The translations under genes and the position numbers were made by a program. Of a stretch of 37,637 nucleotides of DNA, positions 343-31,192 are shown one piece after another. This stretch comes from Alphaproteobacteria bacterium. GTDB taxonomy: Bacteria; Pseudomonadota; Alphaproteobacteria; Rs-D84. The DNA is taken from assembly GCA_009782315.1 (NCBI GenBank), contig WRJH01000003.1, forward strand, positions 1-37,637, read 5' to 3'. The notes beneath the pieces are model-generated. The model had not been told where the DNA came from. It was given only the letters and a program-made list of their open reading frames with translations, and did no database searches. The stretch's first letter is position 1. Each line of letters opens with the position of its first letter.

Positions 343-882
343 TTATTTACGTCTGCGAATCCAATGAAAAACATATAAAGCAACGCCTATGCAAATAAAA
401 ATATCGGCGAAATTAAATGCCGGCCAATGATACCCCGCGTAATGAAAGTCCAAAAAGTCTATCACGGCGCCGAATCGTATGCGGTCTACCAGATTTCCAA
501 CGGCGCCGCCGATGATAAGGGCAAGCGATATGCGTTCCAACCGGCCGGGCGCGCGCAAAAGGACATGTCCGAAAAACCCGATGATTGCGGCGGTGATTAC
601 GACGATTGCAACCGGCGCCGCTTCGCCCAATGCACGGAACAAAGAAAACGACGTTCCTGGATTCCAAGTGAAAACAATATTGAAAAAATTGGTCACGCGC
701 GCCATCAGATAGGGATATGGAACCAGATTGAACGCCCGCCCGAACGCCGGCACGGAACCGGTCAAGAGATACAAAATATATCCCTTTGCAATCTGGTCGA
801 CAAGGACCAACACAAGGCATAAGGCACAAGGCATAAGGCATATGCGTTTTGTATTTGCCATAATTTTTTTCAACGACTTCAT
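343..882 (-). CDS. lspA: Lipoprotein signal peptidase II
   Basis: DQIAK, NPGTSFS, GGAVGNLVDR, VIDFLD, WPAFNFAD motifs. Confidence 0.97.
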   Translation of the reverse strand: MKSLKKIMANTKRICLMPCALCLVLVLVDQIAKGYILYLLTGSVPAFGRAFNLVPYPYLMARVTNFFNIVFTWNPGTSFSLFRALGEAAPVAIVVITAAIIGFFGHVLLRAPGRLERISLALIIGGAVGNLVDRIRFGAVIDFLDFHYAGYHWPAFNFADIFICIGVALYVFHWIRRRK

Positions 883-948
883 ACCTTGTCCTTTATGTGC
901 GACATTTCGACAATTTTTTATGCCTTATGCCCTATGCCTTATGCCTTA
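811..948. repeat. Inverted pair of heptamer arrays AAGGCAT / ATGCCTT
   Basis: Arms 811-842 (in lspA N-terminus) and 918-948 (contains tig stop). Confidence 0.92.
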
Positions 949-2207
949 AAAATTTCGTCCGGCTTTACCGTTTTTTCTTTTATCTTTGCCTGCGCGATCA
1001 TGGCGTCCAACGCCTTTTGTTCGAAAAGCATTCCGCGCATCATGGAAACCGCGTTCGGATTTTTGTTATAGAATTCGAAAACCTGCTGCGGGTTCGGATA
1101 TCCCGCCGCCTCTTTCCAGATTGTTTTCTGCAAATCTTCGTTTGTGACTTTGACATCGTTCGCGCTGCCCCATTCCGCCAGAACCAGGCCCAGTTTCACG
1201 CGGCGTTCGGCGTCTTTCATTTCTTTCTTTTCGTCGAATGCGACGCCTTTGCTTGTCGCTTCCCTTTTCGCCATGTCGAATTCCTGGGACACCAAAGTTT
1301 CAGGGATTTCCATTTTCACCTTGTCCGCCAGCATGTCCAAAAGCTCGTTCCGCATTTCGCGGCGCGCGGCGTCTTCGTACTGTTCCGCCAGTATGCGTTT
1401 TATGTGTTCGCGCAAATCGGCGGCGGATTCCCGGCCGACTTCTTTGGCAAAGGCATCGGACAGTTCTGGCAGAATGGATTTCCGAATTTCATGTATTTCG
1501 ATTTCAAACTTTGTCTTTTGCCCGGCCAGATTTGGCGCGTGATAGTCTTTCGGAAATGTGACGTCGATATCAAACTTGTCGCCCGTTTTATGGCCGACGA
1601 TTTTTTCTTCGAATCCGGGTATGAAAGACCCGCTGCCCAGGACCAGGCGATGCTTTTTCGCCTCTCCCCCTTCGAACGGTTCGTTTCCTAAAAACCCTTT
1701 GAAATCAATGACGGTAACGTCGCCGTTTTGGGCCTTGTATCCGGCGTCCTGCATTTCGAACGTCGCGCGGGATTTCCGCAGGTTGTCCAAAGATTTTTCA
1801 ATTTCGCTTTCCGGCACTTCGGCGATTTTTTTCGTAATTGTGAACCCCGACAATTCGATTTTCGGCAGCGCCGGCAGTACGTCGAATTCGATTGAGTACT
1901 CAACATCCTGTCCGCGCGCGAATTTCGTTATATCGGCCTTTGGCGCGCCGGCCAGGCGCAGATTCTTTTCCTTTGCATAGGCATCCATATCCGCGTTCAT
2001 CAGCTTGTCGACGGCGTCGGCATGCGCGGCGTCGCCGTATTTCTGTTGCAGAATATTCATCGGAATTTTGCCCGGACGAAATCCCGGTATTTTCGCCTTT
2101 TCGCCGTATTTGGCCAGTATTTCACAGGCAGATTTCTGTATTTCATCGGCGGTCAGCAAACCCGCGATATGATAATGCAAATCTTTGATTTTTTCTTTCT
2201 TGAACAT
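939..2207 (-). CDS. tig: Trigger factor
   Basis: IPGFRPGKIP ribosome-binding motif; FKBP domain (IDFKG, LGSGSFIPGFEE, VTFPKDYHA). Confidence 0.98.
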   Translation of the reverse strand: MFKKEKIKDLHYHIAGLLTADEIQKSACEILAKYGEKAKIPGFRPGKIPMNILQQKYGDAAHADAVDKLMNADMDAYAKEKNLRLAGAPKADITKFARGQDVEYSIEFDVLPALPKIELSGFTITKKIAEVPESEIEKSLDNLRKSRATFEMQDAGYKAQNGDVTVIDFKGFLGNEPFEGGEAKKHRLVLGSGSFIPGFEEKIVGHKTGDKFDIDVTFPKDYHAPNLAGQKTKFEIEIHEIRKSILPELSDAFAKEVGRESAADLREHIKRILAEQYEDAARREMRNELLDMLADKVKMEIPETLVSQEFDMAKREATSKGVAFDEKKEMKDAERRVKLGLVLAEWGSANDVKVTNEDLQKTIWKEAAGYPNPQQVFEFYNKNPNAVSMMRGMLFEQKALDAMIAQAKIKEKTVKPDEIFKA

Positions 2208-2310
2208 ATAAACGCCCCTTTATTTCAGCCCGCCCATTATAGTGTCAAATTGCCGGATTGCAACTTTTTTATACTTTACACAAGGGGCCCTTTTTCGGTA
2301 CATTATGGAT

Positions 2311-3390
2311 ATGAGAAAACTGCTTGCTCTATGCTCTATGCTCTATGCTCTTGCGCCGCTGGCGGCGCACGCGTCCGAATACCGCGCGGCGATTGTCGCG
2401 GACATGGATACCGGCGCGATATTGTTCCGCGACCGCGACGAAGAATTGAACTATCCGGCCAGCCTTACCAAAATAATGACGCTTTATCTGACGTTCGACG
2501 CGCTGGAAAGCGGGCGCCTGCACCTTTCCGACCAACTGATAGTATCCGCGGCCGCGGCAAATGCGCCGCCTGTGAAACTGGGCCTGGCGGCGGGTTCGAA
2601 AATTTCCGTCGACGACGCGATAAAGGCGGTCGCGGTGCACAGCGCCAACGACGTCGCGCGCGTATTGGCCGAAAATCTGCGCGGCGGGCGCGAGGCTACC
2701 TTTGCATCAATGATGACGGACGTGGCGAACCAAATCGGTCTTTCCCAGACTAATTTTGAAAACGCGTCGGGACTTCCCGACGACGACCATCTGTCGTCCG
2801 CGCGGGATATCGCGCTGCTGGCCATCGCGATTCACCAGCATTTTCCGGGGTATTGGAAATATTTCGGAATACGGAATTGGACATACGGCGGCCGGACTTA
2901 TACGAACGGGAATAAATTGCTGGGCAACTATGCCGGCGCGAATGGCATGAAGACCGGATTTACGAACAGCGCGCGCTATTGCTTGGTCGCAACGGCGGCA
3001 CGCGACGGCAAGAATATTGTGACGGTTGTTTTGGGCGCGCCTAACCGGGATGTCCGTCTGAACGCCTCGCGGAAATTGCTGGACCGCGCTTTCGGAACGG
3101 AAAGCCGGGAATTGAAAATCGAAGACCCGGACGAACAAACCGCTGTGCAAAAACCGAAACCTGTTTCCAGCGGCGGCGGCAAATCGGGGGTACAATTCGG
3201 CGCATTCGGCAGTCGGAACGCCGCAACCGAACAGGCAAAAAAAGTCCAAAAATACACCGGCATTGTACCAAAAATAGAACAGACTGGGGGCATGTTCCGC
3301 GTCCGGGCTTACGGACTATCGGCGACCGCGGCGGACGGGGCGTGCAAAAAATTCCGCGACCAGAAACTGGATTGTTTTATAATCAAATGA
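2311..3390 (+). CDS. D-alanyl-D-alanine carboxypeptidase (peptidase S11) with C-terminal SPOR-like domain
   Basis: PASLTKIMT (SxxK), SAND (SxN), KTG; VQFGAF SPOR-like tail; start placed at MRKLL (2305 also possible). Confidence 0.92.
   Translation: MRKLLALCSMLYALAPLAAHASEYRAAIVADMDTGAILFRDRDEELNYPASLTKIMTLYLTFDALESGRLHLSDQLIVSAAAANAPPVKLGLAAGSKISVDDAIKAVAVHSANDVARVLAENLRGGREATFASMMTDVANQIGLSQTNFENASGLPDDDHLSSARDIALLAIAIHQHFPGYWKYFGIRNWTYGGRTYTNGNKLLGNYAGANGMKTGFTNSARYCLVATAARDGKNIVTVVLGAPNRDVRLNASRKLLDRAFGTESRELKIEDPDEQTAVQKPKPVSSGGGKSGVQFGAFGSRNAATEQAKKVQKYTGIVPKIEQTGGMFRVRAYGLSATAADGACKKFRDQKLDCFIIK
2325..2351. repeat. Heptamer array (TGCTCTA)n within signal peptide
   Basis: About 4 units encoding ALCSMLYAL. 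Confidence 0.9.
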
Positions 3391-4861: not shown

Positions 4862-4882
4862 TATCTGCAAAAGAGAGAGAAA

Positions 4883-8018: not shown

Positions 8019-9049
8019 ATTCGCTTTGGCCGCAGCTGTCCGTTTATAATTTCGCCGATTCCAATGAACCCGCCGTTATTATAGATACGCCGCAAACCAT
8101 CGCCGTTACTATCGATAAATCCGCCGTTTTTGAACAGTTCCGCGTCTTTATCGCCGATTTCCAAAACCAGAATGTCGTCCAGTCCGAAATCCACCGGTTT
8201 CAGGTATTCCAAAACCGGTTGGTGTTCCGCCTTCGCTTCCGCTCCGGCGCGACAGGCATTATTATACAGATTTTCCAGAAAATCAAGCGCCGCGGCATCT
8301 TTTATTTCAAAATTATGGGTGCGCGTCCGGCGAATGCTGTCGCAAGTGCAGATGAAACCGTTTCCCGTTTTCCGTTTCCCGTTTTCCGCATTATTAATTT
8401 CATCGACGATTTGTTGCGCCAAGGCCCGCACATAAGTCCCGGCGGAACACTGGACCCTGAACTCGGTCGATGTAGGGGCGTGCCGCGCACGCCCGGGCGC
8501 AAGCATTGCGCCCCTACATACTTCCAATTCATATATATTAACCCGTCGCGCGGGCACTTCAAATTCCGCGCCGCGCCGTGCCAATTCGTATGCCCGGCGG
8601 CCACCGATATGCACGGCGCTGTATGCGGGCGGCGTTTGTTCTATTTCGCCAACCAGCACGGACAATGCGGCCGATATCTGCTCACCCGACGGCACACTGT
8701 CGTTTTGTTCCATAACCTTTCCCGTAATATCATCTGTGTCTGTCTTGATTCCCCATTGAACAGAAAATTCATACTCTTTTTGACATCTGTGCTCTCTGCT
8801 CTCTGCTCTATGCTCTAAATACGGTATCATCTTGGTCGCCTCGCCCAGCGCGATTGGCAGAACACCGGACGCCATGGGGTCCAAAGTTCCCAAATGTCCG
8901 AATTTTTTTATCCCGAACATGCGCGCGACGCGGCCGCCGGCCGCGCGACTGGTCATGCCGGACGGTTTATCCAAAATAATCCACCCGCCTTCGTCCGCCT
9001 TCACTTCGTTACGGCGCGACTTCGGCGCGGCAAGCCCGCTTTTGCTCAT
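8003..9049 (-). CDS. truB: tRNA pseudouridine(55) synthase with multiple repeat-derived insertions
   Basis: LDKPSGMTS, GHLGTLDPMASGVL, QTPPAYSA, CSAGTYVR; start placed at ATG 9049. Confidence 0.96.
   Translation of the reverse strand: MSKSGLAAPKSRRNEVKADEGGWIILDKPSGMTSRAAGGRVARMFGIKKFGHLGTLDPMASGVLPIALGEATKMIPYLEHRAESREHRCQKEYEFSVQWGIKTDTDDITGKVMEQNDSVPSGEQISAALSVLVGEIEQTPPAYSAVHIGGRRAYELARRGAEFEVPARRVNIYELEVCRGAMLAPGRARHAPTSTEFRVQCSAGTYVRALAQQIVDEINNAENGKRKTGNGFICTCDSIRRTRTHNFEIKDAAALDFLENLYNNACRAGAEAKAEHQPVLEYLKPVDFGLDDILVLEIGDKDAELFKNGGFIDSNGDGLRRIYNNGGFIGIGEIINGQLRPKRIITSH
8227..8257 (+). repeat. CCSCCTTCRC...GG.GGRCAGG-type palindromic repeat in truB
   Basis: CCGCCTTCGCTTCCGCTCCGGCGCGACAGGC; related to 8985, 21472, 28483. 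Confidence 0.7.
8358..8388. repeat. Heptamer array (CCGTTTY)4 in truB
   Basis: Encodes ENGKRKTGNG. Confidence 0.9.
8472..8517. repeat. GTAG-type REP doublet in truB
   Basis: GTAGGGGCGTGCCGCGCACGCCC + GGGCGCAAGCATTGCGCCCCTAC; encodes CRGAMLAPGRARHAPT. Confidence 0.9.
8786..8817. repeat. Heptamer array (TCTNTGC)n in truB
   Basis: Encodes EHRAESREHR. Confidence 0.9.
8985..9035 (+). repeat. Nested CCGCCTTC-type palindromic repeat in truB N-terminus
   Basis: CCGCCTTCGT[CCGCCTTCACTTCGTTACGGCGCG]ACTTCGGCGCGGCAAG. Confidence 0.7.
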
Positions 9050-9050: not shown

Positions 9051-11579
9051 TCATTCACCAAACAGGGACATTTGTTTTTTTGCGGCCAATTCCGGCTCTT
9101 TAACTTTTTTCACAATAGACGGCTCTTCCGTACCAGGCACAACAACCGGCGGCGGCGCTCTATCTATGCTCTGTTCTCTATGCTCTCTGCTCTCCAGTTG
9201 TTGCAGAATCCGCTCTGCGGATTCTACAACACTGGCTGGCATTCCGGACATTTTTGCGACATGTATTCCGTATGAAGACCCCGCAACCCCCGGCATAATT
9301 TTATGCAAGAATACGATTTCGTTATTGTGTTCCGCAACCTGGACCGTCAGATTTGTAATCGAATTCCGCGTATCCGAAAGCGCGGTCAATTCGTGATAAT
9401 GCGTCGCGAACAGCGTGCGCGGCGCGGCATTGTCGACAAATTCAAGAACGGCCTGGGCGATGGCCATGCCGTCGAACGTTGCGGTTCCGCGACCTATTTC
9501 GTCGAATATGATGAACGATTTTTCGGTCGCGCGGTTTAATATGTTCGCGGTTTCCGTCATTTCCACCATGAAAGTGGACTGTCCCGCGGCCAGATTATCC
9601 GACGCGCCAACGCGGCTGAACAGCTGGTCGCATATTCCAATGCTTGCGGAATTCGCGGGCACGAAAGACCCCAAATGGGCCAAAACGACAATCAGCGCGT
9701 TCTGTCGCAGATATGTGGATTTTCCGGCCATGTTCGGCCCGGTTAAAAGGGCGATGCGTTTTTCATTCAAATCGCAATCGTTTTTTACAAACTGGTCGCC
9801 GCGCCCGCGCAGCATGCATTCGACAACCGGGTGGCGGCCGCCGGTAACGGCGAATTCGCCGCCGTCCGTCATATTCGGCCGGGTCCAGCTATATTCTTCC
9901 GCGGCCAGTGAAAGCGAAAGCCATACGTCGGCATCGGCCAGCAAATCGGCGACATACATCAAATCGTCCGCCGCCGCGCGGATATGTTCGATTAATTTCG
10001 CGATGATTTCCGCCTCTATCGCGGCCGCTTTTTCGGCGGCGCCGCGAACTTCGTTGTCCAATTCGATAAGGCGCGCGGTTGTAAACCGGACGTTTCCGGC
10101 CATCGTCTGGCGGTGGATATAGGTATCCTTTGCATCGAACAAAGCGCCCGCCTTTGCCGCCGGCACTTCGATATGATACCCCAGTATGTTGTTGTATTTG
10201 ATTTTCAAAGTATTGATTCCGGACGCGGCCGCGTATTCGGATTGCAGGGACGCGATGACTTCCTTTGCGCCATGGGCCAGCGAATTCATATTGTCCAGCG
10301 CCGTGTCGTATCCGCCCCGTATGATGCCGCCGTCGCGAAAAAATGCCGGGCATTCGTCCGACAGCGCCAGGCGCAGTTCCGCGGAAAGCCCGTCCATAGT
10401 ATTTATATTTTCGAAACACGCGGACTGATTTGAATCAAGTTTGCGTCCGCATATTTTGAATTCCGGCAATCGCGCGATAAATTCGGCGCATCCTTTCAAA
10501 TCGCGTGGGCACCCGCGCCCGGATAACAGGCGCCCCAGCGCCCGCCCGATATCCGATGTCTTGGATAACAGTGCGCCCAGTTCCGCGGCGACATGACTGT
10601 TTAACAACAGGTGCCCGATGTGTTCCTGGCGGCTGCGGATTTCGGAAATATCGCCCGAAAGTTCGCGCAAGTATGCGCGCAGTTTCCGCGCGCCCGCGGC
10701 GGTTTTCGTCTTGTCCAGAATGTCCAATAATGTGGCGCCGCCGGACTGCATCGGCTCGTCAATTTCCAAGGACCGCCATGTCGCGGCATCGACCAACAGC
10801 CGGGCGCCCGCGCCCAGACGGTACGGCGCGCGGAACGACAATTTCGCGCCCCGCTGGGTCTGTTCCAAATACCCGGCCAGCAAATTGACCGACATATTGA
10901 CGGATGTTTTGTCGATTCCGAATATAGTCCGAACGGTATCCGATATGTTTTCGCGTTCGAAAATCCTGTCGTAAAGCGGCGTCGTGCGAAATGCAGTTCT
11001 TATGCGTTTTATATCCGGCAATTCCGCCGCGCTTTCGGGGTAAATTATTTCGGACGGATTTATACGAACCATTTCGTCGAACAGTCCGTCCGACAGTTCT
11101 CCAACGAAAAATTCGCCCGTGGATATGTCGCATCCGGCGATATGGAATAATGAATTTTCCGGCACGATGGCGACCAGAAAGTTTGATTTTTTCGGGCTTA
11201 ACAGATTTTCATCCGTCAAAGTTCCGGCGGTCAGAACGCGGACGACGCCGCGCTTGATTTGTTTCGCGCCTCTCGCCTTTGCCTCTTCCGGCGATTCCAA
11301 TTGTTCGGCGATGGCGACGTTATACCCTGCGCGCACCAGCCGCCCCAGATAATTTTCCGCCGCATGCCACGGTATTCCGCACATGGGGATTTCACCGCCC
11401 GACGCATCGGTTCCGCGACGGGTCAGGACCAGTTCCAGCGCGCGCGACACGACAACGGCGTCTTCGAAAAAGCATTCGTAAAAATCGCCCAACCGGAACA
11501 ACAGCACGGCCCCCGGACATTCGGATTTAATGTCCAGGTATTGCTGCATAACGGGCGTAAGGGCTGGTTTGATTGGCAT
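9051..11579 (-). CDS. mutS: DNA mismatch repair protein MutS
   Basis: TPVMQQY, FRLGDFYECF, GRHPVVE, TGPNMAGKSTYLRQ, STFMVEM, DEIGRGT, SYGIHVA. Confidence 0.98.
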   Translation of the reverse strand: MPIKPALTPVMQQYLDIKSECPGAVLLFRLGDFYECFFEDAVVVSRALELVLTRRGTDASGGEIPMCGIPWHAAENYLGRLVRAGYNVAIAEQLESPEEAKARGAKQIKRGVVRVLTAGTLTDENLLSPKKSNFLVAIVPENSLFHIAGCDISTGEFFVGELSDGLFDEMVRINPSEIIYPESAAELPDIKRIRTAFRTTPLYDRIFERENISDTVRTIFGIDKTSVNMSVNLLAGYLEQTQRGAKLSFRAPYRLGAGARLLVDAATWRSLEIDEPMQSGGATLLDILDKTKTAAGARKLRAYLRELSGDISEIRSRQEHIGHLLLNSHVAAELGALLSKTSDIGRALGRLLSGRGCPRDLKGCAEFIARLPEFKICGRKLDSNQSACFENINTMDGLSAELRLALSDECPAFFRDGGIIRGGYDTALDNMNSLAHGAKEVIASLQSEYAAASGINTLKIKYNNILGYHIEVPAAKAGALFDAKDTYIHRQTMAGNVRFTTARLIELDNEVRGAAEKAAAIEAEIIAKLIEHIRAAADDLMYVADLLADADVWLSLSLAAEEYSWTRPNMTDGGEFAVTGGRHPVVECMLRGRGDQFVKNDCDLNEKRIALLTGPNMAGKSTYLRQNALIVVLAHLGSFVPANSASIGICDQLFSRVGASDNLAAGQSTFMVEMTETANILNRATEKSFIIFDEIGRGTATFDGMAIAQAVLEFVDNAAPRTLFATHYHELTALSDTRNSITNLTVQVAEHNNEIVFLHKIMPGVAGSSYGIHVAKMSGMPASVVESAERILQQLESREHREQSIDRAPPPVVVPGTEEPSIVKKVKEPELAAKKQMSLFGE
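9157..9193. repeat. Heptamer array (CTATGCT)-like in mutS C-terminus
   Basis: Encodes ESREHREQSIDRA. Confidence 0.85.
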
Positions 11580-17377: not shown

Positions 17378-18096
17378 ATTGTGCCCCACTCGCAAATCAC
17401 ATTCGCGTGTTCTATTTCGTTTTTAATCATGTGCCTGCTGGTCATTCCGTCAATGCGCGATTCCACGTTGATGTTACGCATATCCGCCGGAATTTCCTTT
17501 TTGAAATTGATGTCGATCCGGCGCAGCTTGTGGCCGTTTCGGAATTCGAATCCCAAAGATTCCGCCGCCCATGTGGCGTATACCGCGTTGTTTATATGCT
17601 GATTCAAATCGACATCGTCAAAACGGGGATACGCAACCCAGGTGGTATCCGCATCGAATTCCGGAAATTTTTCAAACGGCCGGTCGATGACATGTTCGTC
17701 CACTGTCCCCCAACCCGCCAATACTTCGTCGATACGCACCGGCCGGCGGGTGTCCATGTCTATCATGACCCATTGGCTGGTCGCGCGAACCATGATGTTG
17801 CCAGACATGTCTTTGATTTCGAAATCGCGCGCCGCGCGCAGCGCGTCCGCCGCGGACGGCCAAGTGTATATTTCGATTTCCTGGTTTTCGCCCGGCATTT
17901 TGATTATGTCGACCAAGTAATGAGTAACAACCCACGCGCGGCCGGTATCACGGCACCATGTCCGTCCGCGTCCCAAAAGTTCAGCGTGAATATCCGCGAC
18001 TTCCTGTAATTCGTTCATCAGCATGACCGGCCGCAACAGCCCGTGCCGGTCCATTTTATAAGTTTTCAAAACCTTTTTTTCAACGTGCTTTTGCAT
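17374..18096 (-). CDS. Acyl-ACP thioesterase (FatA/B-like double hotdog)
   Basis: LQEVADIHA, IYTWP, ATSQWVMIDMDTRRP, DVDLNQHINNAVY. Confidence 0.93.
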   Translation of the reverse strand: MQKHVEKKVLKTYKMDRHGLLRPVMLMNELQEVADIHAELLGRGRTWCRDTGRAWVVTHYLVDIIKMPGENQEIEIYTWPSAADALRAARDFEIKDMSGNIMVRATSQWVMIDMDTRRPVRIDEVLAGWGTVDEHVIDRPFEKFPEFDADTTWVAYPRFDDVDLNQHINNAVYATWAAESLGFEFRNGHKLRRIDINFKKEIPADMRNINVESRIDGMTSRHMIKNEIEHANVICEWGTI

Positions 18097-20503: not shown

Positions 20504-20976
20504 AAATCAATTCCTTGCAATTCAGGCGGCAGTTCGGTGATGGCATGCCAAACCTGGGTCCGACCAAACGGCCCGACTTTGCCGCGTACGCGAAGCAGCG
20601 ACGCATCGTCCTTGTCCTGCCAAATTACGGAAGAATAGACGCTGCCCGACTGGGGGTCCATGATTTTTCCGCCGATATATTCCGTTCCATCCCATTTCAT
20701 GTCCCAGATGATTTCCAGACCGGACATTTTCGGCGCGCCTTTTACTTTTTCGGCGATTTTGACGGGTGCTTTGATTGTTTCGGAAATTTCGCCGGTATCG
20801 GCATCAAACAAAGCTACAATTCGCCCGCACAAGCGGTCTTCGCATTCGTGCAATTGGACGATTGATTTCGGCGCGTTCGTCTTGTCGTCTATGGTTTTGT
20901 AAAACCCGGTATGCGGGGCGGCATGCACACCCAAGGCATAGGGCATAAGGCATAGGGCATAAATTACTTTTTTCAT
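20500..20976 (-). CDS. DUF2147-family exported protein
   Basis: LCGRIV, GLEIIWDM, GGKIMDPQSGSVY, LRVRG, GRTQVW. Confidence 0.88.
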   Translation of the reverse strand: MKKVIYALCLMPYALGVHAAPHTGFYKTIDDKTNAPKSIVQLHECEDRLCGRIVALFDADTGEISETIKAPVKIAEKVKGAPKMSGLEIIWDMKWDGTEYIGGKIMDPQSGSVYSSVIWQDKDDASLLRVRGKVGPFGRTQVWHAITELPPELQGIDL

Positions 20977-21103
20977 AACTGAAATTCCTTTGATAATTTT
21001 AATATTGGACTGGCAAATAATACATTATAAAAAACATAAAATCAACCGTCTTGCGATTCTTAATTCTATGCCTTATGCCTTATGCCCTATGCCCTATGCC
21101 CTA
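20933..21103. repeat. Inverted pair of ARGGCAT / YTATGCC arrays
   Basis: Arms 20933-20962 (DUF2147 signal peptide) and 21066-21103 (ends in comF stop). Confidence 0.93.
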
Positions 21104-21841
21104 AATCGCCCGCACGACTCTGCAAAATACGACGCCGTATACCCGCTTTGCGCCGGCGCGTTTCAAAACGCGGCGCAATTCATAAAATGTGGCGCCGGTT
21201 GTCATGACGTCGTCGACCAACAGGATTGTTTTGCCTTTGATTTCATCCGGGCGGCGAACTTTGAACACTCCGCGGATATTTGCCCTGCGTTCTTTGGCGT
21301 TTTTATGCCCCATGTCTTTTCGGTGGGCTCGCCGGACGGAATCGACGTCCATCGGAACGGCGAAATGTTTCGCGATGGGCCGGGCCAAAAGGGCCGCCTG
21401 GTTGTATCCGCGTTTGAACAATCGCCGGTATGAAAGCGGCACCGGCATGATTAAATCGAACGGCGGAACATCCCCCTTCGCGCATTGCGCTTTGGGGGAC
21501 AGGTCGCGCAGCGAATTAATCATCGCACGCGCCATAAGATTGCGGTATTTCAGCGCGGCCGCATGCTTGAACGGCAACATGACACCCTTTGAAGCGTCGT
21601 CGTAAACGCAAGAGCTTCGCATAAAATCGACAACGTTTTTGCCGGACGCGCACGTGGGGCAAAGCGGCCGCGAACCCAAATCGATATTCGCCGGAAAAGG
21701 ATAGCCGCAAACAAAGCATTTCGGGTCGGAAATCCAGTTGAATTCGGCCCAGCATTTTGCGCACAAAACGCCGTCTTCGGTACCGACGGTTTTACAAACC
21801 GGACAAGACGGCGGGAAAAGAAAATCCAGGATAAATTTCAC
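21101..21841 (-). CDS. comF: ComF family protein (zinc ribbon plus phosphoribosyltransferase)
   Basis: LFPPSCPVC, four CxxC, VPLSYRR, RGYNQA, LLVDDVMTTGAT; GTG start. Confidence 0.93.
   Translation of the reverse strand: MKFILDFLFPPSCPVCKTVGTEDGVLCAKCWAEFNWISDPKCFVCGYPFPANIDLGSRPLCPTCASGKNVVDFMRSSCVYDDASKGVMLPFKHAAALKYRNLMARAMINSLRDLSPKAQCAKGDVPPFDLIMPVPLSYRRLFKRGYNQAALLARPIAKHFAVPMDVDSVRRAHRKDMGHKNAKERRANIRGVFKVRRPDEIKGKTILLVDDVMTTGATFYELRRVLKRAGAKRVYGVVFCRVVRAI
21472..21503 (+). repeat. CCSCCTTCRC-type palindromic repeat in comF
   Basis: CCCCCTTCGCGCATTGCGCTTTGGGGGACAGG; encodes LSPKAQCAKG. Confidence 0.7.
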
Positions 21842-23496: not shown

Positions 23497-24192
23497 CTAA
23501 CTTTTCCACAAACTGTCTTTGACATTCTTGTCGATAAATTCCGCATGCGCGGCCAATTCGTCGGCCGGCACGTCGAATTCGCGGCGCGGAAAATTCCCGT
23601 CCGATTTCGGCACGGCGGAAAAAGCGTCGCATTGTTTTTGAATTATGTCGGCGATGGATTCGCCGGCAGCGGCAGCCTCCAGTTCCAGATAAACTTTCGC
23701 CAATATTTCCGCGTCGATAAGCGCGCCGTGCGAATCCGCGCGCGTGGCCAAAGATATGCCGAACCATTTGGCCAAAGAATCCAGGGTATAGCTTTTCGGA
23801 CCGAAAATCTTGTTTCGCGCGATTTGAATGGTGTCTACCTGGCGGTCGCGCGAGATGGTGGAAAGCCCCAGCGCGTTCAGTTCGTAATTAATGAACGGAA
23901 AATCGAAATCTATTCCGTTGTGCGCGACGACGGGACTGTCGCCGATAAAATCCAAAAGCTTTTGCGCCAGCGCGGAAAACTTCGGCTTGTCCGAAAGGAA
24001 TTCGTTGGATAGTTTGTGCACCATGTACGATTCGGCGGGGATAATTTTCCCGTCCGGATTTACGTATTCGTGGAAAGTCTTGTCGGTGACGCGCCCGTCG
24101 ATGATTTCGACGGCGCCGATTTCGATAACGCGGTCTCCTTTGTCATAAAAGAACCCGGTGGTTTCGATGTCAAAGCAGATTATTCGTGGCAT
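23497..24192 (-). CDS. dnaQ: DNA polymerase III epsilon subunit
   Basis: DIETTG, DRVIEIGAVE, VAHN..FD, HGALIDAEILAKVYLEL (DEDDh). Confidence 0.95.
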   Translation of the reverse strand: MPRIICFDIETTGFFYDKGDRVIEIGAVEIIDGRVTDKTFHEYVNPDGKIIPAESYMVHKLSNEFLSDKPKFSALAQKLLDFIGDSPVVAHNGIDFDFPFINYELNALGLSTISRDRQVDTIQIARNKIFGPKSYTLDSLAKWFGISLATRADSHGALIDAEILAKVYLELEAAAAGESIADIIQKQCDAFSAVPKSDGNFPRREFDVPADELAAHAEFIDKNVKDSLWKS

Positions 24193-24315
24193 GGTGGCTG
24201 GTGGCTCGTGCTGGTGGCTGGTGACTAAATGGATTCATAGCAAATTTCTATTGGAAATAACAATAAAATTTTTTATACTGCCCCCATGAATCACCAGCCA
24301 CCAGCCACCAGCTAC
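24184..24315. repeat. Inverted pair TGGTGGC / CCACCAG spanning the dnaQ-uvrD divergent promoter
   Basis: Arms 24184-24226 (embeds dnaQ ATG) and 24291-24315 (uvrD HQPPATS). Confidence 0.9.
24251..24279 (+). promoter_or_regulatory. Putative promoter for leaderless uvrD
   Basis: TTGGAA-N17-TATACT, ATG 6 nt downstream, no RBS. Confidence 0.5.
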
Positions 24316-26409
24316 AAATCACGATTAAATCCCGAACAATTGTGCGCCGTGGAAACGACGGACGGTCCGGTTTTGGTTCTGTCCGGCGCGGGTACGGGAA
24401 AGACATCCGTTCTTGTCGCGCGCATGGCGCATATCCTGGACCGGAATTTGGCGCGGCCGTGGGAAATCCTGGCCGTGACGTTTACTAACAAGGCTGCGGC
24501 AGAGATGAGGACCCGTGTCGCGGCGCTTGCGCCTACCCCTGAATGGGTCGGCACTTTTCATTCCATTTGCCTTCGTATATTGCGGATTAATTCTGCGGCG
24601 GCGGGACTTGGCAATAATTTCATAGTGCTGGGCGAAGACGGTCAGAAAGCGGTTTTGAAAACCGTGATAACGGCGATGAAACTGGACACCAAAGAATACC
24701 CGCCCGCGGATTGGGTGGAACGCATATCGGCAATAAAGGACAAGGGCCTGGGCGATAACTCCCCCCTTCGGGGGGAAGTCGACGGCAAAGCCGTCGGTGG
24801 GGGGCAAAAAATCTATAACGCGTACAACGCGGAATTGGCGCGGATGAACGCGGTGGATTTCGGCGATTTGATTTTGAAAGTTTTGGAACTGTTCAAAGGC
24901 CGCCCGGACGTGCTGCAAAAATATCAAAAACAATTCAAATATATCATGGTTGATGAATACCAGGATACGAACGCCGCGCAATACCAATTGCTGCGCATGC
25001 TGGCTGCGGCACATAACAATATATGCTGTGTGGGCGATGATGACCAGTCGATATATTCCTGGCGCGGGGCGGATATAAAAAATATTTTGGGATTCGAAAG
25101 CGATTACGCGGACGCAGACGTAATCAGGTTAGAGACGAATTATCGCAGCACGGGAAATATCCTGGGCGCGGCAAACAGCCTGATACGGCATAACACGGAC
25201 CGTCTGGGCAAAAACCTGCGCGCAAGCGATGGCGCGGGCGACGGCGAAAAAATCCGCATCCTGCATCTGCCGACGGATTTCGACGAAGCGCGCCTGACTG
25301 CGGACGCCATCACCGCGTATCCAGCGGGTGAAGTCGCCGTGCTTATCCGCGCCGGTTCGCTGTCCAGATTGTTCGAAGAAGAATTCGCGCGCCGCGGCAT
25401 AGAATACAAACTTGTCGGCGCGACGAAATTTTACGACCGCATGGAAATAAAGGATACGGTCGCGTACTCGAATCTTCTTGCCCACCCGCACGACGATATT
25501 TCGTTCGCGCGGGTCATATCGAAACCGCGCCGCGGATTCGGCGATGTCGCCGTGCAAAAAATCCGGGATTTCGCCGCGGCGAAAAAAATCGGAATGCTGG
25601 CTGCATTGCGCGAAATGCCGCTGTCGGGCGCGCAAAAAAAATCCGCGGACGAATTTTCGGCCGTATTCGATTTTGCATGGGAAAACATGGCGCCTTCTGA
25701 TGCGGTGTCGGAACTGTTGGAAAAATCCGGATATATGAAAATCTGGGCGGAATCCAAAGACGCGGATGCGCCCGAAAGATTGCAAAATGTCCGGGAATTG
25801 ATTTCGAACGTGATTTCAAAATACGATTCTTTGCCGGAATTTTTGGAACATGCCGCGCTGATGATGACGGACACGGGCGATACGGAACCGGATGCTTCCA
25901 GCCGCGGCGCGGTCGCCATAATGACGATTCATGCGGCAAAGGGCCTGGAATTCGACACGGTGTTTCTGCCCGCGTGGGAGGAAGGAATTTTCCCGAACGA
26001 CATAGCTATAAAAGAAGGCGGAATCGAAGAAGAGCGCCGCCTGGCATACGTTGCCATAACGCGCGCAAAACGCCGTGCGATTATAACGCATACGATGTCG
26101 CGCATGCTTTACGGCACAAGACAACCCGGCACCCAAAGCCGGTTTATCGCAGAGATTGATGAAGAATTCATAGGGCATAAGGCACAAGGCATAAGGCATA
26201 ATAATATAAAACCGGCGGAACATTATTCTGAAAAAACAAAACCCATTTGCCCCATGCCTTATGCCTTATGCCCTAATATGGTCGGCAAACTTGTGACTCA
26301 TGCCGAATTGGGCGGCGGCGTGGTTATAGAGGACGGCGGGGAAATACTGACCGTCGCTTTCAAAGACAAGGGCATTAAAAAAATCGCCCGGAAATTTGTG
26401 GGGTTGTGA
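24286..26409 (+). CDS. uvrD: UvrD/PcrA family helicase
   Basis: GAGTGKT, VTFTNKAA, VDEYQDTN, VGDDDQSIY, NYRS, TIHAAKGLEF, EERRLAYVAITRA. Confidence 0.95.
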   Translation: MNHQPPATSYKSRLNPEQLCAVETTDGPVLVLSGAGTGKTSVLVARMAHILDRNLARPWEILAVTFTNKAAAEMRTRVAALAPTPEWVGTFHSICLRILRINSAAAGLGNNFIVLGEDGQKAVLKTVITAMKLDTKEYPPADWVERISAIKDKGLGDNSPLRGEVDGKAVGGGQKIYNAYNAELARMNAVDFGDLILKVLELFKGRPDVLQKYQKQFKYIMVDEYQDTNAAQYQLLRMLAAAHNNICCVGDDDQSIYSWRGADIKNILGFESDYADADVIRLETNYRSTGNILGAANSLIRHNTDRLGKNLRASDGAGDGEKIRILHLPTDFDEARLTADAITAYPAGEVAVLIRAGSLSRLFEEEFARRGIEYKLVGATKFYDRMEIKDTVAYSNLLAHPHDDISFARVISKPRRGFGDVAVQKIRDFAAAKKIGMLAALREMPLSGAQKKSADEFSAVFDFAWENMAPSDAVSELLEKSGYMKIWAESKDADAPERLQNVRELISNVISKYDSLPEFLEHAALMMTDTGDTEPDASSRGAVAIMTIHAAKGLEFDTVFLPAWEEGIFPNDIAIKEGGIEEERRLAYVAITRAKRRAIITHTMSRMLYGTRQPGTQSRFIAEIDEEFIGHKAQGIRHNNIKPAEHYSEKTKPICPMPYALCPNMVGKLVTHAELGGGVVIEDGGEILTVAFKDKGIKKIARKFVGL
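24759..24804 (+). repeat. CCCC/GGGG double-hairpin palindromic insert in uvrD
   Basis: CTCCCCCC-TTC-GGGGGGAAGT CGACGGC-AAA-GCCGTCG GTGGGGGG; encodes SPLRGEVDGKAVGG. Confidence 0.7.
26169..26275. repeat. Inverted heptamer pair wholly in frame within uvrD
   Basis: Arms 26169-26201 (IGHKAQGIRH) and 26246-26275 (ICPMPYALCP). Confidence 0.92.
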
Positions 26410-26498: not shown

Positions 26499-26529
26499 AA
26501 AAAACGGATTCTTTCGAATCCGTTTTTTT
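26499..26529. terminator. Bidirectional intrinsic terminator
   Basis: AAAAAACGGATTC-TTTC-GAATCCGTTTTTTT. Confidence 0.9.
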
Positions 26530-28834
26530 ATTGCCGGCATTGCATTGTCGTGCCGCCTTCCTCCGCTTTCCACGAATACCCCGGCGCGCATCTGCAATAT
26601 TGCATTCCTGGAATTGCTCCACCTGTGCCCCCCAACTGTTGATTATTCACAGCATTGCATTCTTCATACGACACACAACTGCCGTTCATTACCATAAATG
26701 AACTGTCGCACTTACACATCGCGTTGACCCAGCCGTTAGACGTACCGTTAGCGCTGATAGCTGTTCCGCCAGTTGCGAATGTCGAATTATCCGGGCACAG
26801 CATGGATTGATAGAATATTTCCGAAATTCCGTTTATGAAAACATTCTGGTCATTTCGGTTTGTTTCCGCCGAAAATACCGCGTATCCGCATGTCAGCGCG
26901 ACATTGCGGCACGCGCCCCGCATAACATTGTACACATGTTCCGCCGACGCGTTGGACGACCATGCGCCGACCTGGCTGACCTGTTGGCTGTAACAGAATG
27001 CTACGTCCTGCATGCACGTTGTCGCAAAATCGGAAATTACGCGGGACTGGGCGGCCTTTATATTAACCATCGCGCGCTGTATGAATGTTTTTACAACCTC
27101 GTTATGAGGATTGAATTTTCCGGACTTGTCATACGTGACGGCACGGCACCGGTCCATAGTCGCACGGCAAAGTCCGCTGGTCGCATCCTGGCTTGTGCCG
27201 ATTTTCTGCAACAGGAAATTGATGATGCATGTGCCGTCGGTCAGTGCGGTTGAAGAGCATTGACCCGGCACGGGCAGCCCCTCTAACGACATGTCCGCCA
27301 TATTGAATCCCGCCGTCATGCCCGTTATATTCGTTATATCCTTGCCCAAAACGACAGTGCCGTTTTCGTCGATATACATTTTCGTCGGGTCTATGCATTT
27401 AACAAAATCGCGGCCGCACACCATGTCGTCGGTCATGCATTTTTCCAGCGCGCCGACGCAACCCTTTGCGTCGTATTGGTTATGGTTCTGCATGACGGCA
27501 AGCCTGGCCTGTTGCAGCATCTGCGTCGCGGCGCGCACATTGGTGCGCAACGTCTGGTTCATCTTTTCCAATCCCTTTTCGTACTGGGTGCAGTCGCGGT
27601 CGATTTCAATTTCGTACCGGGCGGTGATTTGCGACACGTTGACGCCGGACCGCCGGCAAGCGGACAATACGTTTTCACACCGGCCCCTTGCGGCGTTCAA
27701 TAATTGGGTCCCGCGCATATTCGCAAAGGTCCCGCCGCCGGTTCCGAATAGATTACCGATATTGAACATTTCGGCCGGATCGCCCGACAGCGCGAAATCT
27801 ATATTCATATCCAAACCGTATCCGGTCGTGCCGGATGCGGCGACGAACGATTCCGGATTTTTTATCAGCTGTTCGATTTGGTCCAGCATGTTGCGGTTTT
27901 CGGTTGTGTCGCGCGCGCCGGTCAATGCAAGTTCCGCTTCGGTCGCGCTTAATATCGCGCGGATTTCATCGGCGGTAAGGCCGACATAGCGTATACGCTG
28001 GGCGACTTCGTTCAATTCGTTGTTGGCTTCTTTTGTGGCGTTTTCGACGCGGGAATAATTGGACAGCCGGTCGGAACAGCTGCACCGTTTTTGATTCGCG
28101 TCCAGGACGTTGCAGAACTGGTCCATGCATTCCGTGTATTGTTCGTGGCATGCGGCGGTCAAATCGCCCATGGCGGACAGCTTGTCGGTCAGTTCGTTAA
28201 TAGACACGGACGTCACTTGGGTTCCGGCGCGGTCGGTGCGCGTTGCGATGCGGCCGGTGTTGCCGATGTTGGATGTTGTGGGCTGGCCCGTGCCGGCGAC
28301 GTTTCCGCGGCCGCCGACTTCGGCGACGGTGGGCCGCAGAATGATTCCGGCGCGGCGCAAACTGGCCTCTTGATTCACAACGCCTTTGTCGTTTTCATGA
28401 AAAGCCGCGCGTCCCATGGCGCTGCCGGCGCCCTGCGCCTGAACGCCCGCCGCGCGGGATACGGCCGCAGAACGCGCAACAGCCTGCCCCCCGGAACCTT
28501 GGTGAAGGGGGGTGCGCGCAACAACGGGGGCGGAAACCTGGGGTGCGGCGGCCGATTGTTGCGGCACGGCTTGTGATGTTGTTGCTGTGCGTGTTACAAC
28601 GGCATTACGCGATACACCTGGCGCGACCGCCGTTCTCTCCGCTCTATTATCTATGCTCTCTTCTCTATGCTCTATGCTCTGCGGCGCCTGCGCCGCAGCC
28701 TGCGTCACGGTTCTGGAAACCGCCGCGCGACCGTATTGGATTGGTTCATCAGCGTTTGCAATGAAAGCAAGGCACAAAGCCCCGGCTGTTGCCAGGGCCA
28801 CTGTCTTTATGAAAAATCTTCCCTGTGATTTCAT
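26528..28834 (-). CDS. Large exported Cys-rich hypothetical protein (paralog A)
   Basis: Signal peptide, Ala/Arg/Thr-rich N-terminus, CHEQYTECMDQFC...KRCSC, EGF-like Cys tail. Confidence 0.88.
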   Translation of the reverse strand: MKSQGRFFIKTVALATAGALCLAFIANADEPIQYGRAAVSRTVTQAAAQAPQSIEHREESIDNRAERTAVAPGVSRNAVVTRTATTSQAVPQQSAAAPQVSAPVVARTPLHQGSGGQAVARSAAVSRAAGVQAQGAGSAMGRAAFHENDKGVVNQEASLRRAGIILRPTVAEVGGRGNVAGTGQPTTSNIGNTGRIATRTDRAGTQVTSVSINELTDKLSAMGDLTAACHEQYTECMDQFCNVLDANQKRCSCSDRLSNYSRVENATKEANNELNEVAQRIRYVGLTADEIRAILSATEAELALTGARDTTENRNMLDQIEQLIKNPESFVAASGTTGYGLDMNIDFALSGDPAEMFNIGNLFGTGGGTFANMRGTQLLNAARGRCENVLSACRRSGVNVSQITARYEIEIDRDCTQYEKGLEKMNQTLRTNVRAATQMLQQARLAVMQNHNQYDAKGCVGALEKCMTDDMVCGRDFVKCIDPTKMYIDENGTVVLGKDITNITGMTAGFNMADMSLEGLPVPGQCSSTALTDGTCIINFLLQKIGTSQDATSGLCRATMDRCRAVTYDKSGKFNPHNEVVKTFIQRAMVNIKAAQSRVISDFATTCMQDVAFCYSQQVSQVGAWSSNASAEHVYNVMRGACRNVALTCGYAVFSAETNRNDQNVFINGISEIFYQSMLCPDNSTFATGGTAISANGTSNGWVNAMCKCDSSFMVMNGSCVSYEECNAVNNQQLGGTGGAIPGMQYCRCAPGYSWKAEEGGTTMQCRQ
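28483..28512 (-). repeat. CCSCCTTCRC-type palindromic repeat in paralog A
   Basis: Minus strand CCCCCTTCACCAAGGTTCCGGGGGGCAGG; encodes PLHQGSGGQ. Confidence 0.65.
28641..28680. repeat. Heptamer array (GCTCTAT)-like in paralog A
   Basis: Encodes QSIEHREESIDNRA. Confidence 0.85.
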
Positions 28835-28856
28835 ATTAAATCCGAAACCAGTTCAC

Positions 28857-30992
28857 TTATGGCTGTATGCCTTGCGACCCATCCGGCAACACGCCCCAAT
28901 CGCGGATATTGTCCACATTCATCTGTTGCAGACACCATTCGCGGATTTCCTTTGATTTTTTGCCGGTTCCATAAGTCGGCTGACTTATAGTTCCCGTTAC
29001 GCCCGTGCCGTAAAGGATTTCAGACAGCGTCACAACGTTGCGGCAAGTGTTCAGCTTTGGATCCTGGTTGTTGTCGCAAGTTTCGTTGTCAACCTTGTCT
29101 ATGATTGCCGCCACGGACGTATGCGCCGGACTGCAAATCATATCGCGGTAACAGCTGGGGATATTGGACGTCTGCGTGCAGTGCGCTTTGATTCTCGCGG
29201 TCGTCCAATTTTGCGACTGGTACTGCATCTGTTCGTAACAATCCCATATTTCGGTCAGGCATTGCACGAAATTGTTTTTCGCGGCGGTGGAATTCGCGCG
29301 CTGGGCGTTTGTTTCCGTTGTTTCGAATTCAAGGCGTTTCGCTTGCAGCGCCTGCATTGCGGCAATACGCTGGAACGCCATGTTCTGGGTCATCGTTTTC
29401 AATTCTTCGCCGTAAACGTCGCAGTCGGCGTTCGCGTCCAGCGCATACCGGACCAGAACGCTGCGGCGCGCGTCCGCGATGGGCTTGCGCAGATTTTCAA
29501 ACGGGTCGGAATTCGCATTGTATCCGAAACACACGGCCGTGGCGGCTGTGCTGGAACTGTTGGATTTTATGGCGAATGCGTTGTTCACGTCGGTATTGTT
29601 GTTGCTGATTGTGATTTTGCTGTTCAGGTTTCCGGGCGTGTTGCTTTTACAGTCTTCGTATATTCCGTTGAAACAGGAATCCAGAACGCGTCCGCAAACT
29701 TCGTTGTGCGCGAATTGGAACAAATCATATCCCCATGTTTCTGCCAGATTGTCTTTCACCATCGTATCGCCGAATACCGAACTTTCGCCGGGCCGGCGCA
29801 GCCCCAAATCCACGGTAATATTGTACGCGCTGTTGATATTTTTCAACCAGGCGAACATGTCGTTGTCGCGGGTGATTGTGTCGACCAGCTGCATATTGCT
29901 GTTCGCGGTGTTAAGCAGATTGCTGATGGACGAATCCATGCCGTTCAAACTGTTTATCATACCGCCCGGACACATTGTGTTTTCAAAGTTGCGAATAGTG
30001 CCGGCTGTACAGGTAGCAGTGTCGCTTTGCGCTATAAGCGCAACGGTATTGTTATTGCACCATTCTGTTTTCATATTTTCGTTGTCGCTGAAAACAACTT
30101 CGCGGAACGAAACGCAGTTCAGAATTTTTTCCGCATCGGTCAGCGTGAATGCGGCCGATATGTCGCGCCCGCCGGATGCGACGATAAGCGCCAATTCGCC
30201 CGACGCGCGCAATAAATCCTCGCGCGCCTGGTTCAATGTTTTTTCCGCCGAATTGAATGTCAGAACGCGTCCAGCGCACGCACAGCGGCGCTGTCCCGGA
30301 TTGCGCGCGGTGCAGATTTCATCCATGCAGGTGTAATACGCGTCCATACAGTTCGCGTACGCTTCCGCGGATATCAGACCGGTCTGCGGGTCGATGATGT
30401 TCGCGTGGCTGCCCGTCCACATGCGTTGCGACAAAAGGGAATTGGAATTCACCGATGTGCCCGGAACCCGCGAAGTCGCGGATGCGCCCGCAACCATTCC
30501 GACGCGCGCGCTTTGCGGCATAACTCCGGTTCGCGCCGAAACGGCGCGGCTTTGCGTCGATGCGGCGGCGCGACCTGTGACATTACGCGGTGTAACTGTG
30601 GCGGCGCGTGCCGTTGGCGCGGCGTTGCGCGCGGACTGCGTTGTTGTTGTGGCGCGGCTTTGCTGTGCGGTTGTGCCGGCTGTTGCCGGTGTGGCGATGG
30701 CGGCCGGTGCCGCCGCTGTACGCGCGGTTACCGCGCGGGCGCCCAAACCTTCGCGGCCCTGTGCCTGACCGCGGGCGGCGACGCCGCGCGACCCTGCGCC
30801 TGCGCCGCCTGTGCGGCCGGATTGCTGTGCGGCCGCGCTGCGCGGATTATACGTCTGGCTTCCGGCCGCCGCTTGCTGCGCCGCGACCTGGGCCTGGTAT
30901 ACGCCCGCCTCTCCGTATTGAACCTGTGCGTATGCGCTGAATGCAAAAACCGCCGCGCAAATAGCCGCCATAAAAAAATGCGTGAACTTCAT
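28857..30992 (-). CDS. Large exported Cys-rich hypothetical protein (paralog B)
   Basis: Signal peptide ending AYA, low-complexity N-terminus, CMDAYYTCMDEIC...RRCAC. Confidence 0.88.
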   Translation of the reverse strand: MKFTHFFMAAICAAVFAFSAYAQVQYGEAGVYQAQVAAQQAAAGSQTYNPRSAAAQQSGRTGGAGAGSRGVAARGQAQGREGLGARAVTARTAAAPAAIATPATAGTTAQQSRATTTTQSARNAAPTARAATVTPRNVTGRAAASTQSRAVSARTGVMPQSARVGMVAGASATSRVPGTSVNSNSLLSQRMWTGSHANIIDPQTGLISAEAYANCMDAYYTCMDEICTARNPGQRRCACAGRVLTFNSAEKTLNQAREDLLRASGELALIVASGGRDISAAFTLTDAEKILNCVSFREVVFSDNENMKTEWCNNNTVALIAQSDTATCTAGTIRNFENTMCPGGMINSLNGMDSSISNLLNTANSNMQLVDTITRDNDMFAWLKNINSAYNITVDLGLRRPGESSVFGDTMVKDNLAETWGYDLFQFAHNEVCGRVLDSCFNGIYEDCKSNTPGNLNSKITISNNNTDVNNAFAIKSNSSSTAATAVCFGYNANSDPFENLRKPIADARRSVLVRYALDANADCDVYGEELKTMTQNMAFQRIAAMQALQAKRLEFETTETNAQRANSTAAKNNFVQCLTEIWDCYEQMQYQSQNWTTARIKAHCTQTSNIPSCYRDMICSPAHTSVAAIIDKVDNETCDNNQDPKLNTCRNVVTLSEILYGTGVTGTISQPTYGTGKKSKEIREWCLQQMNVDNIRDWGVLPDGSQGIQP

Positions 30993-31058
30993 GGAATATC
31001 CTTTCCTACTAATTCTAATAAATTATATCATTTTTGCGCCATGCAGGTAAAGGGGAAA

Positions 31059-31192
31059 ATAGGGCATAAGGCACAAGGCATAAGGCATATTTTCCTGTTG
31101 TTAATATTTGGATTTTCGATGATAATTTCACCGTTAACCAAAAGGAAAAAATATGAAAAAACTTATGCCTTATGCCTTATGCCTTGTGCCTT
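31059..31192. repeat. Inverted pair AAGGCAT / CTTATGC
   Basis: Arms 31059-31089 (identical to 26170-26200) and 31162-31192 (mliC signal peptide). Confidence 0.93.

Follow-up and report, generated by a model that had tools for sequence, protein, structure and literature searches.

Dispersed heptamer arrays code for the hydrophobic cores of predicted export signals in a termite-gut alphaproteobacterium

Introduction

In Neisseria, the opa repeat encodes the hydrophobic core of the leader peptide, and in cyanobacteria the short tandemly repeated repetitive (STRR) sequences are dispersed heptanucleotide repeats. Rickettsia palindromic elements (RPEs) are hairpin-forming dispersed repeats that are translated in frame within conserved genes, where they add surface loops. 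RPEs are not known to supply the start codon, n-region, or h-region (hydrophobic core) of an export signal, or to keep total length. The present work concerns tandem arrays of heptanucleotide units (heptamer arrays) in a stretch of 37,637 nucleotides of alphaproteobacterial DNA (assembly GCA_009782315.1, contig WRJH01000003.1, positions 1 to 37,637; hereafter the window) and in the genome to which it belongs, here called G000. In this genome, one heptamer family codes for the hydrophobic core of predicted export signals in about 45 envelope proteins.

The CTCTT coding repeat of Neisseria opa is translated and lies in the leader-peptide region (PMC3960869). Like it, the arrays of G000 consist of a short tandem unit that is not a multiple of three and are translated inside the signal-peptide region. 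However, opa has a 5-nt unit in long variable tracts that form a proven slippage on/off switch in one surface-antigen gene family (PMC3960869), whereas G000 has a 7-nt unit in a fixed four to five copies, found across about 45 envelope genes that are unrelated to one another and mostly housekeeping, with no length variation seen among contigs. Dispersed heptanucleotide repeats have been described as GGGNATC in Xanthomonas and Nostoc (PMC4692102) and as TAACTGA in Beggiatoaceae (PMC4679880). The arrays of G000 share with these the 7-nt unit, a preference for about four units, a genome-wide distribution, locations near the starts and ends of open reading frames (ORFs), and overlap with stop codons (PMC4692102, PMC4679880). 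In contrast, GGGNATC and TAACTGA repeats are reported to be under-represented in coding regions (PMC4692102, PMC4679880), whereas 219 of the 326 arrays in G000 overlap called ORFs and only 107 are intergenic by our own gene calls. In addition, one strand of the G000 arrays serves as a signal-peptide core, and the term "signal peptide" is absent from PMC4679880. The enterobacterial repeat units RU-1 and RU-2, which resemble miniature inverted-repeat transposable elements (MITEs), are fused to ORFs (Delihas, 2007; PMC2759123). These are isolated in silico cases of non-tandem elements of 103-168 bp (PMC2759123), unlike the systematic, genome-scale pattern of heptamer arrays in G000 with its turnover between sister genomes. 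A search of the literature, supplements aside, found no published description of heptamer arrays as signal-peptide cores.

Genomes and Criteria

The window is contig C3 of G000, which comprises 814,626 bases in 60 contigs (51% GC, 88% complete) and is found in three termite-gut metagenome runs (X1, X2, and X3); the runs listed for it include none of RNA. G000 was compared with G004, a same-genus sister of which 885 kb were used, and with further kin genomes, which are non-independent samples. Genes were called with our own crude Markov caller, giving 717 ORFs that cover 85.5% of the genome. N-termini were classed as signal-like by a crude, home-made n/h/c rule, and lipobox candidates were picked by a regular expression rather than a trained predictor. 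Three third-order Markov simulations of the genome served as the control for repeat counts.

Arrays in Four Envelope Genes

Four envelope genes of the window, each with its name confirmed by Pfam, carry an array within the N-terminal coding region. LspA is encoded at 343-882 (minus strand) and begins MKSLKKIMANTKR-ICLMPCALCL-VLVLVDQ. Its ATGCCTT-type array (811..842, minus) codes for residues 14-24 (ICLMPCALCLV), which form most of the first transmembrane segment (TM1), and is the downstream arm of a composite element. The core of this element (843..917, minus) provides the lspA start codon (at 882) and the n-region MKSLKKIMANTKR, and the upstream arm (918..948, minus), which is stop-bearing on the coding strand, contains the trigger-factor stop codon (939-941) directly after the final residues FKA. 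The S11 carboxypeptidase/SPOR protein (2311-3390, plus; MRKL-LALCSMLYAL-APLAAHAS) draws the h-region LALCSMLYAL of its signal from a solo ATGCTCT array (2325..2351, plus). In the DUF2147 gene (20500-20976, minus; MKKV-IYALCLMPYAL-GVHA), an ATGCCYT array (20933..20962, minus) codes for the h-region IYALCLMPYAL, and a partner arm 103 nt upstream (21066..21103, minus) contains the stop at which the upstream gene (21101-21841) ends. Lastly, the h-region LMPYALCLVP of MliC (31153-31467, plus; MKK-LMPYALCLVP-LFLGAC) is encoded by an ATGCCTT array (31162..31192, plus) and adjoins the lipobox LGAC. The upstream arm of this pair (31059..31089, plus) is of the AAGGCAT type and intergenic, and a decayed copy of it occurs in G004 too.

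These arrays had been noticed in a sequence-only reading of the window, and the six peptides it quoted, from these four proteins and from the soluble proteins TruB and UvrD, were all found in place, with Pfam in agreement on every name. Its observation that much of the N-terminal hydrophobic segment is array-encoded extends far beyond the four genes. The prediction that removal of the array would leave almost no h-region in DUF2147 and MliC was borne out as well, the uncharged N-terminal stretch falling from 14 to 5 residues and from 16 to 6, respectively; it falls from 15 to 5 in LspA and from 16 to 8 in the carboxypeptidase.

The arrays are translated and form the hydrophobic core. If they were instead untranslated 5' leaders, the true starts would lie downstream, as they do in two ribosomal-protein genes (G000:C1:15415 and C5:13564), where a conserved MAKKE or MLMPTK follows the array. 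However, most array-bearing genes, including the four named ones, have their lipobox or AXA motif and conserved mature start immediately after the array, with no intervening start, and every ortholog has a signal peptide of equal length there. In these four, the only in-frame start codons on the way from the array to the lipobox or mature start are ATGs of the array itself, so their arrays must be translated. Downstream starts, which the sequence-only reading had raised as its own counter-case, are therefore ruled against here, and as a general account they are very improbable.

Abundance of Heptamer Arrays in the Genome

Heptamer arrays far exceed chance. Tandem Repeats Finder reported 60 repeat rows for the window and 953 for the whole genome; of the latter, 379 have period 7, as compared with 48 of period 6 and 39 of period 8, and the three simulated genomes gave only 22-28 period-7 rows. 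Once merged, the 326 arrays of G000 show a sharp length mode at 31-33 nt, about 4.4 units (4-5 copies). The largest families are AAGGCAT (51 arrays), AGAGCAT (51), AAATCAG (24), AAAGTCG (15), and AATAGGT (12), and the superfamily of ATGCCTT and ATGCTCT (ATGCYYT) accounts for 108 of the 326 arrays. The arrays are not assembly artifacts, since contigs of two other termite-gut runs hold them unchanged: record 21 of X3 covers the mliC array and record 12 of X2 covers both UvrD arrays, with 0 differing letters. Contigs of X1 end at heptamer arrays (window positions 18716, 21094, 22738, 26199, and 31811), and breakage of short-read assembly at arrays may account for the 60-contig state of G000.

The unit is not a multiple of three and, as in opa (PMC3960869), it sits near the 5' end of genes for exported proteins, which invites the explanation that the arrays are phase-variation switches, in which gain or loss of a 7-nt unit would shift the frame and turn envelope genes on and off. 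However, the arrays have only 4-5 units with a tight mode of 31-33 nt, and no 7-nt indel was found at any array between window positions 17700 and 37637 in the contigs of the three runs, which drop rare variants. The carriers also include TolB, LolA, LptE, and LspA, the products of core envelope-biogenesis genes usually held essential. Phase variation is thus an unlikely explanation.

Coding Properties and Placement of the Arrays

Since 7 and 3 have no common factor, each frame of an array yields an identical cyclic heptapeptide, and strand alone sets the product; 21 nt of array run through all three frames. ATGCCTT gives MPYALCL (mean Kyte-Doolittle hydropathy of 1.56) and ATGCTCT gives MLYALCS (1.67), and these strands contain an ATG in every frame and no stops. 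The reverse strands, AAGGCAT and AGAGCAT, contain TAA or TAG in every frame, and their stop-free variants give KAQGIRH or RAESIEH (-1.31).

The 108 superfamily arrays comprise 49 in the first 40 codons in the hydrophobic sense, 2 there in the other sense, 23 at ORF 3' ends in the stop sense, 15 internal (12 hydrophilic and 3 hydrophobic), and 19 intergenic. The 49 N-terminal hydrophobic arrays stand against a first-40-codon sense space that makes up 5.3% of strand space (binomial p = 1.8e-33), and 47 of them are set off from the called start by at least three codons. At the other end of genes, the stop codon sits inside the array in 22 of the 23 C-terminal superfamily arrays, and 51 of the 62 C-terminal arrays of all families hold the stop codon of the gene, often as the first codon of the array.

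The n/h/c rule classed the N-termini around 44 of the 49 arrays as signal-like. Of the five exceptions, two are ribosomal-protein leaders, one is a HemK-like protein, one is an ORF truncated at the end of a contig, and one is LolA, a miss of the rule. Pfam placed 13 of 24 array-bearing proteins in envelope families and 0 in cytoplasmic families, leaving 11 without a family. The 13 are TolB, LolA, LptE, LpoB, an OmpA/Pal-like protein, SLT, M48+TPR, PagL, a weak SurA_N match, LspA, S11+SPOR, DUF2147, and MliC; the names Slt, BepA-like, and DacC-like (the carboxypeptidase) are also used within this set. An h-region array is present in 12 of the 40 lipobox candidates. The remaining parts of a signal peptide are present as well: a positively charged n-region, which is either MKK or MRK or a 13-aa Lys/Arg-rich stretch encoded by the core of the composite element, and a c-region, such as LGAC in MliC and AHA-S in the carboxypeptidase. 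The n-regions of 47 array signals are bimodal in length, with 3-6 and 11-15 aa. Median uncharged stretches are the same with and without an array (16-18 aa), and the median of the best 8-residue Kyte-Doolittle window is 2.5-2.7 in array signals versus 2.8 in others.

It had been proposed from the sequence that selection retains the orientation whose peptide fits its context. The same unit families read on the other strand do give hydrophilic peptides (EHRAESREHR in TruB and GHKAQGIRH in UvrD), and orientation is associated with context (two-by-two table with rows 44, 8 and 1, 13; Fisher p = 1.2e-7). However, the fit is partly forced, because the canonical reverse strand stops every frame and because in 27 of the 49 cases the orientation is set by membership in a composite element that brings a start codon with it.

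A Composite Element With Inverted Arms

Superfamily arrays occur in 34 close pairs, 33 of which are ordered as a stop-sense array, a core, and a hydrophobic-sense array. Both arms of each pair belong to one family, and the core measures 43-47 nt in 15 of the 34. Aligned copies begin with the upstream arm AAGKCAT AGGGCAT AAGGCAT, continue after about 5 nt with a core of the form ATG AGA TTG.TG AAA ... ACA AAA YGC A, which reads MRLLKxxxSxxTKR, and pass into the ATGCCTT array, often followed by a GC-rich c-region palindrome. The downstream arm of such a pair constitutes 27 of the 49 N-terminal arrays. Copies that are not fused to a gene also exist (C17:1876-1980, C8:3716-3817, and C30:2305-2409).

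The lspA element (808-956, minus) is 92% identical (137/149) to G000:C6:19045-19197, which precedes an unrelated 424-aa lipoprotein gene. Since the likeness ends at the element edges, the first 24 codons of lspA derive from a dispersed repeat. Identity between cores reaches 0.96 for lspA and C6 and 1.00 for C23 and C42. Inverted arms (33 of 34 pairs) together with dispersed conserved copies (two unrelated loci 92% identical) are features of MITE- and RPE-like palindromic elements. Folding predictions for the RNA pair the two arms over 30 bp (-58.9 and -61.2 kcal/mol; z of -9.9 and -8.6), so that the composite could form a stem whose loop contains the start codon. Inspection by eye in five families revealed neither a flanking motif nor a target-site duplication.

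GC-rich palindromes such as GCGCTTGCTTGCGCAAG lie directly 3' of many N-terminal arrays (e.g., G000 C23:5768 and C8:21483). They code for an Ala/Cys-rich c-region and may belong to the element. G004 has a near-identical core of its own, (M/V)LRLKRYFTDIKKA, before ATGCTCT arrays at C2:55073, C2:78541, C5:6708, and C4:4065; its presence in at least four unrelated genes points to recent spread within that genome.

Replacement, Addition, and Turnover

The sequence-only reading suggested that arrays may replace rather than add sequence, and ortholog signal lengths support this for three of its four genes. The carboxypeptidase signal is 22 aa in G000 versus 18-26 in 18 orthologs with a clear start, and that of DUF2147 is 22 aa versus 20-26 in 11 orthologs. 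In MliC, the Cys is residue 19 in G000 and residue 18 in the G004 ortholog, which lacks an array; across 8 orthologs, it falls at 16-22. Overall, the length of the signal is maintained in sets of 9-20 orthologs. The suggestion fails for LspA, in which 28 residues precede the conserved DQ in G000 and G004 versus 13-18 in most array-less orthologs, and for the loop arrays of TruB, which are additions.

Solo arrays elsewhere in the genome bear out replacement. In eight solo-array genes with array-less or decayed G004 orthologs, the G000 protein is longer by merely 1, 1, 2, 2, 2, 3, 3, and 5 aa, and the array codes for 9-11 aa. An automated N-terminal comparison of 40 G000/G004 pairs gave a median difference of +1, with 23 pairs within 3 aa. 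DNA alignments of LptE, LpoB, TolB, and three lipoproteins show a swapped tract between conserved flanks. The flanks of mliC likewise align at the DNA level between G000 and G004, and there the array is derived in G000, since G004 and G001 have a common non-array core (LLTLALPLAL/LLTLSLTLTL). Among internal arrays, 57 of 70 face G004 sequence of similar length, and 11 of 70 face a gap of at least 6 aa. These alignments indicate that replacement occurs where length is constrained (signals and linkers) and addition where it is free (loops).

Such lengths also bear on the explanation that the arrays are plain selfish in-frame insertions similar to RPEs, which would only add residues and leave longer signals that are tolerated. 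The LspA of G000 and G004 is about 10 aa longer, the TruB loop has gained 11-12 aa, composite signals are 8-11 aa longer, and the gaps opposite 11 of the 70 internal arrays all fit this account. It does not fit the solo-array signals, which are longer by only 1-5 aa, or MliC, DUF2147, and DacC, which are within the ortholog range. Furthermore, once the array is removed, 5-8 uncharged residues remain, which is too short a stretch for an h-region, so that no intact older core lies beside the array. We consider insertion alone improbable.

The arrays turn over between relatives. G004 has 272 period-7 rows with a length mode of 31 nt, and its families overlap those of G000 only in part. Exact matches to three ATGCYYT units number 115 in G000, 28 in G004, 2 in G001, 1 in G005, 1 in G033, and 0 in the other 36 genomes searched. 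G004 orthologs were found for 47 of the 49 genes with N-terminal arrays; both genomes bear an array in 23 ortholog pairs, and the family differs in 11 of these by automatic label, or 12 with lspA. The spacer between tig and lspA is occupied by a pair of the AAGGCAT type in G000 and by one of the AGAGCAT type in G004. The h-region of the carboxypeptidase is built from ATGCCYT units in G002-G004, TTACTGG in G001, TTTTCAC in G011, TGTCACT in G005, and ATCTGTT in G006; the same signal peptides in other genera carry TTACTGG, TTTTCAC, TGTCACT, ATCTGTT, or TATCTTT arrays. For internal arrays, heptamer periodicity was found at 21 of 68 aligned positions in G004 and in 5 of 320 control windows (p = 2.5e-13); the unit at those G004 positions is in most cases unrelated. 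Array sites, as judged from these alignments, persist while unit families change between sister genomes.

Arrays in Soluble Proteins and Neighboring Features

In TruB, an AGAGCAT-type array (8786-8816, minus) is read in the hydrophilic sense as EHRAESREHR, in a loop of 2 residues in 10 of 16 orthologs. A second array, of the CCGTTTC family (8358-8388, minus), codes for ENGKRKTGN at a site where only G000, G004, and G001 have an insert. The TruB loop arrays are net additions of 11-12 aa, and the loop bears different inserts in six genomes. UvrD contains in its linker a full composite (array, 46-nt core, array; 26169-26275, plus) that is read through in frame as IGHKAQGIRH...CPMPYALCP, with GHKAQGIRH at 26169-26201, and that precedes the C-terminal domain. 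The left arm is open in the UvrD frame only, through a CAA variant unit, and a decayed version lies at the corresponding site in G004; the linker is about equal in length in all orthologs. The UvrD-linker composite and the TruB loops behave like RPEs.

Other repeats lie nearby. An inverted GTGGCTG/CACCAGC pair (24186-24223 and 24292-24317) flanks the divergent start region of uvrD and the ORF at 23497-24192; it codes for the UvrD N-terminus MNHQPPATS, a tail that matches the orthologs in length. In MutS (9051-11579, minus), an AGAGCAT-type array at 9163-9193 is read as SREHREQSI near the C-terminus. Two adjacent ORFs, 26528-28834 (768 aa) and 28857-30992 (711 aa), are without a Pfam family; an AGAGCAT-type array of 48 nt (28633-28680), found in G004 too, lies in the first. 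The window ends in a 5S rRNA gene (37078-37192) and the 3' end of a 23S rRNA gene (37306-37637), both on the minus strand, which explain the very high word depth there.

Origin of the Array-Encoded Signals

Taken from sequence comparison, the best and a probable account is that dispersed, lineage-specific heptamer arrays now supply the h-regions of Sec and lipoprotein signals (and TM1 of LspA), mostly by replacing an older core. Most copies would form an intergenic composite that ends the upstream ORF with its stop-bearing array, provides an ATG and a Lys/Arg-rich n-region in a core of 45-100 nt, and continues into the hydrophobic array. Composite copies of this kind, together with solo arrays behind a native MKK start, would provide the h-regions. 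A permissive tract of about 30 nt may have been overwritten repeatedly by copies of dispersed arrays, through recombination or conversion, or else through an insertion and a later compensating deletion, and selection would keep those products with the correct hydrophobicity, length, and frame. As the signal-peptide core demands only hydrophobicity, length, and frame, it may be a safe harbor for the hydrophobic strand.

Several points weigh against this account. Replacement is not universal: signals with a composite element exceed solo or array-less orthologs by 8-11 aa because of their 13-aa n-region, and LspA is about 10 aa longer because a composite element of about 150 nt took over its native 5' end. 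The 40 G000/G004 pairs include 7 at -7 aa or below and 3 at +7 aa or above, although several of these outliers reflect mis-picked starts or the comparison of composite with solo forms. One-step replacement is, moreover, indistinguishable in these alignments from insertion with compensating deletion. The gene calls come from a crude, home-made Markov caller, and export and cleavage of the array-bearing proteins are deduced from an equally home-made rule, which flags 242 of 717 ORFs and probably over-calls. Arm-to-arm copying by template switching is not supported as a general origin of the second arm, since complementarity averages 23.8 within own pairs versus 24.2 across pairs and the observed figure is matched in 443 of 500 permutations; a mirrored CAC/GTG variant in the mliC pair only was treated as a hint of such copying. 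Pfam searches of the 88% complete G000 for Y1_Tnp and RVT_1 found none, and thus neither a Y1 transposase nor a reverse transcriptase can be named as the mobilizing enzyme.

Loss of repair as the cause is contradicted by the presence of MutS and RecA in G000. Comparison of the 45-nt cores of G000 and G004 is uninformative about concerted evolution, since AT-rich shuffled 45-mers reach a median best identity of 0.64 and a maximum of 0.78; identity between cores of this length is meaningful only at 0.8 or above.

More tentatively, the replacement account may be extended. A dispersed cassette of about 105-150 nt, made up of a stop array, a Shine-Dalgarno-like AAGG, an ATG, an n-region, and a hydrophobic array, could act as portable gene punctuation and export signal, having replaced the original 5' ends of conserved envelope genes in dozens of cases. 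In broader terms, arrays at fixed sites could be rewritten periodically with the current unit families of the genome by copying that involves no recognizable transposase. This extension is possible but doubtful at present; if true, it would constitute a previously undescribed concerted evolution acting on coding sequence.

Implications

Heptamer arrays break short-read assemblies, and they will mislead start-codon calling, since one strand contains an ATG in each frame and the opposite strand contains stops. For protein export, G000 offers a natural experiment on the minimal sequence of a signal peptide, in which cores that contain Pro, Tyr, and Cys, namely (MPYALCL)n and (MLYALCS)n, would serve TolB, LolA, LptE, LpoB, and about 40 other proteins. 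The pattern suggests that repeats of selfish or slippage-born origin can make the export signals of unrelated genes alike and exchange such signals between sister species, which would add a new route to the evolution of signal peptides.

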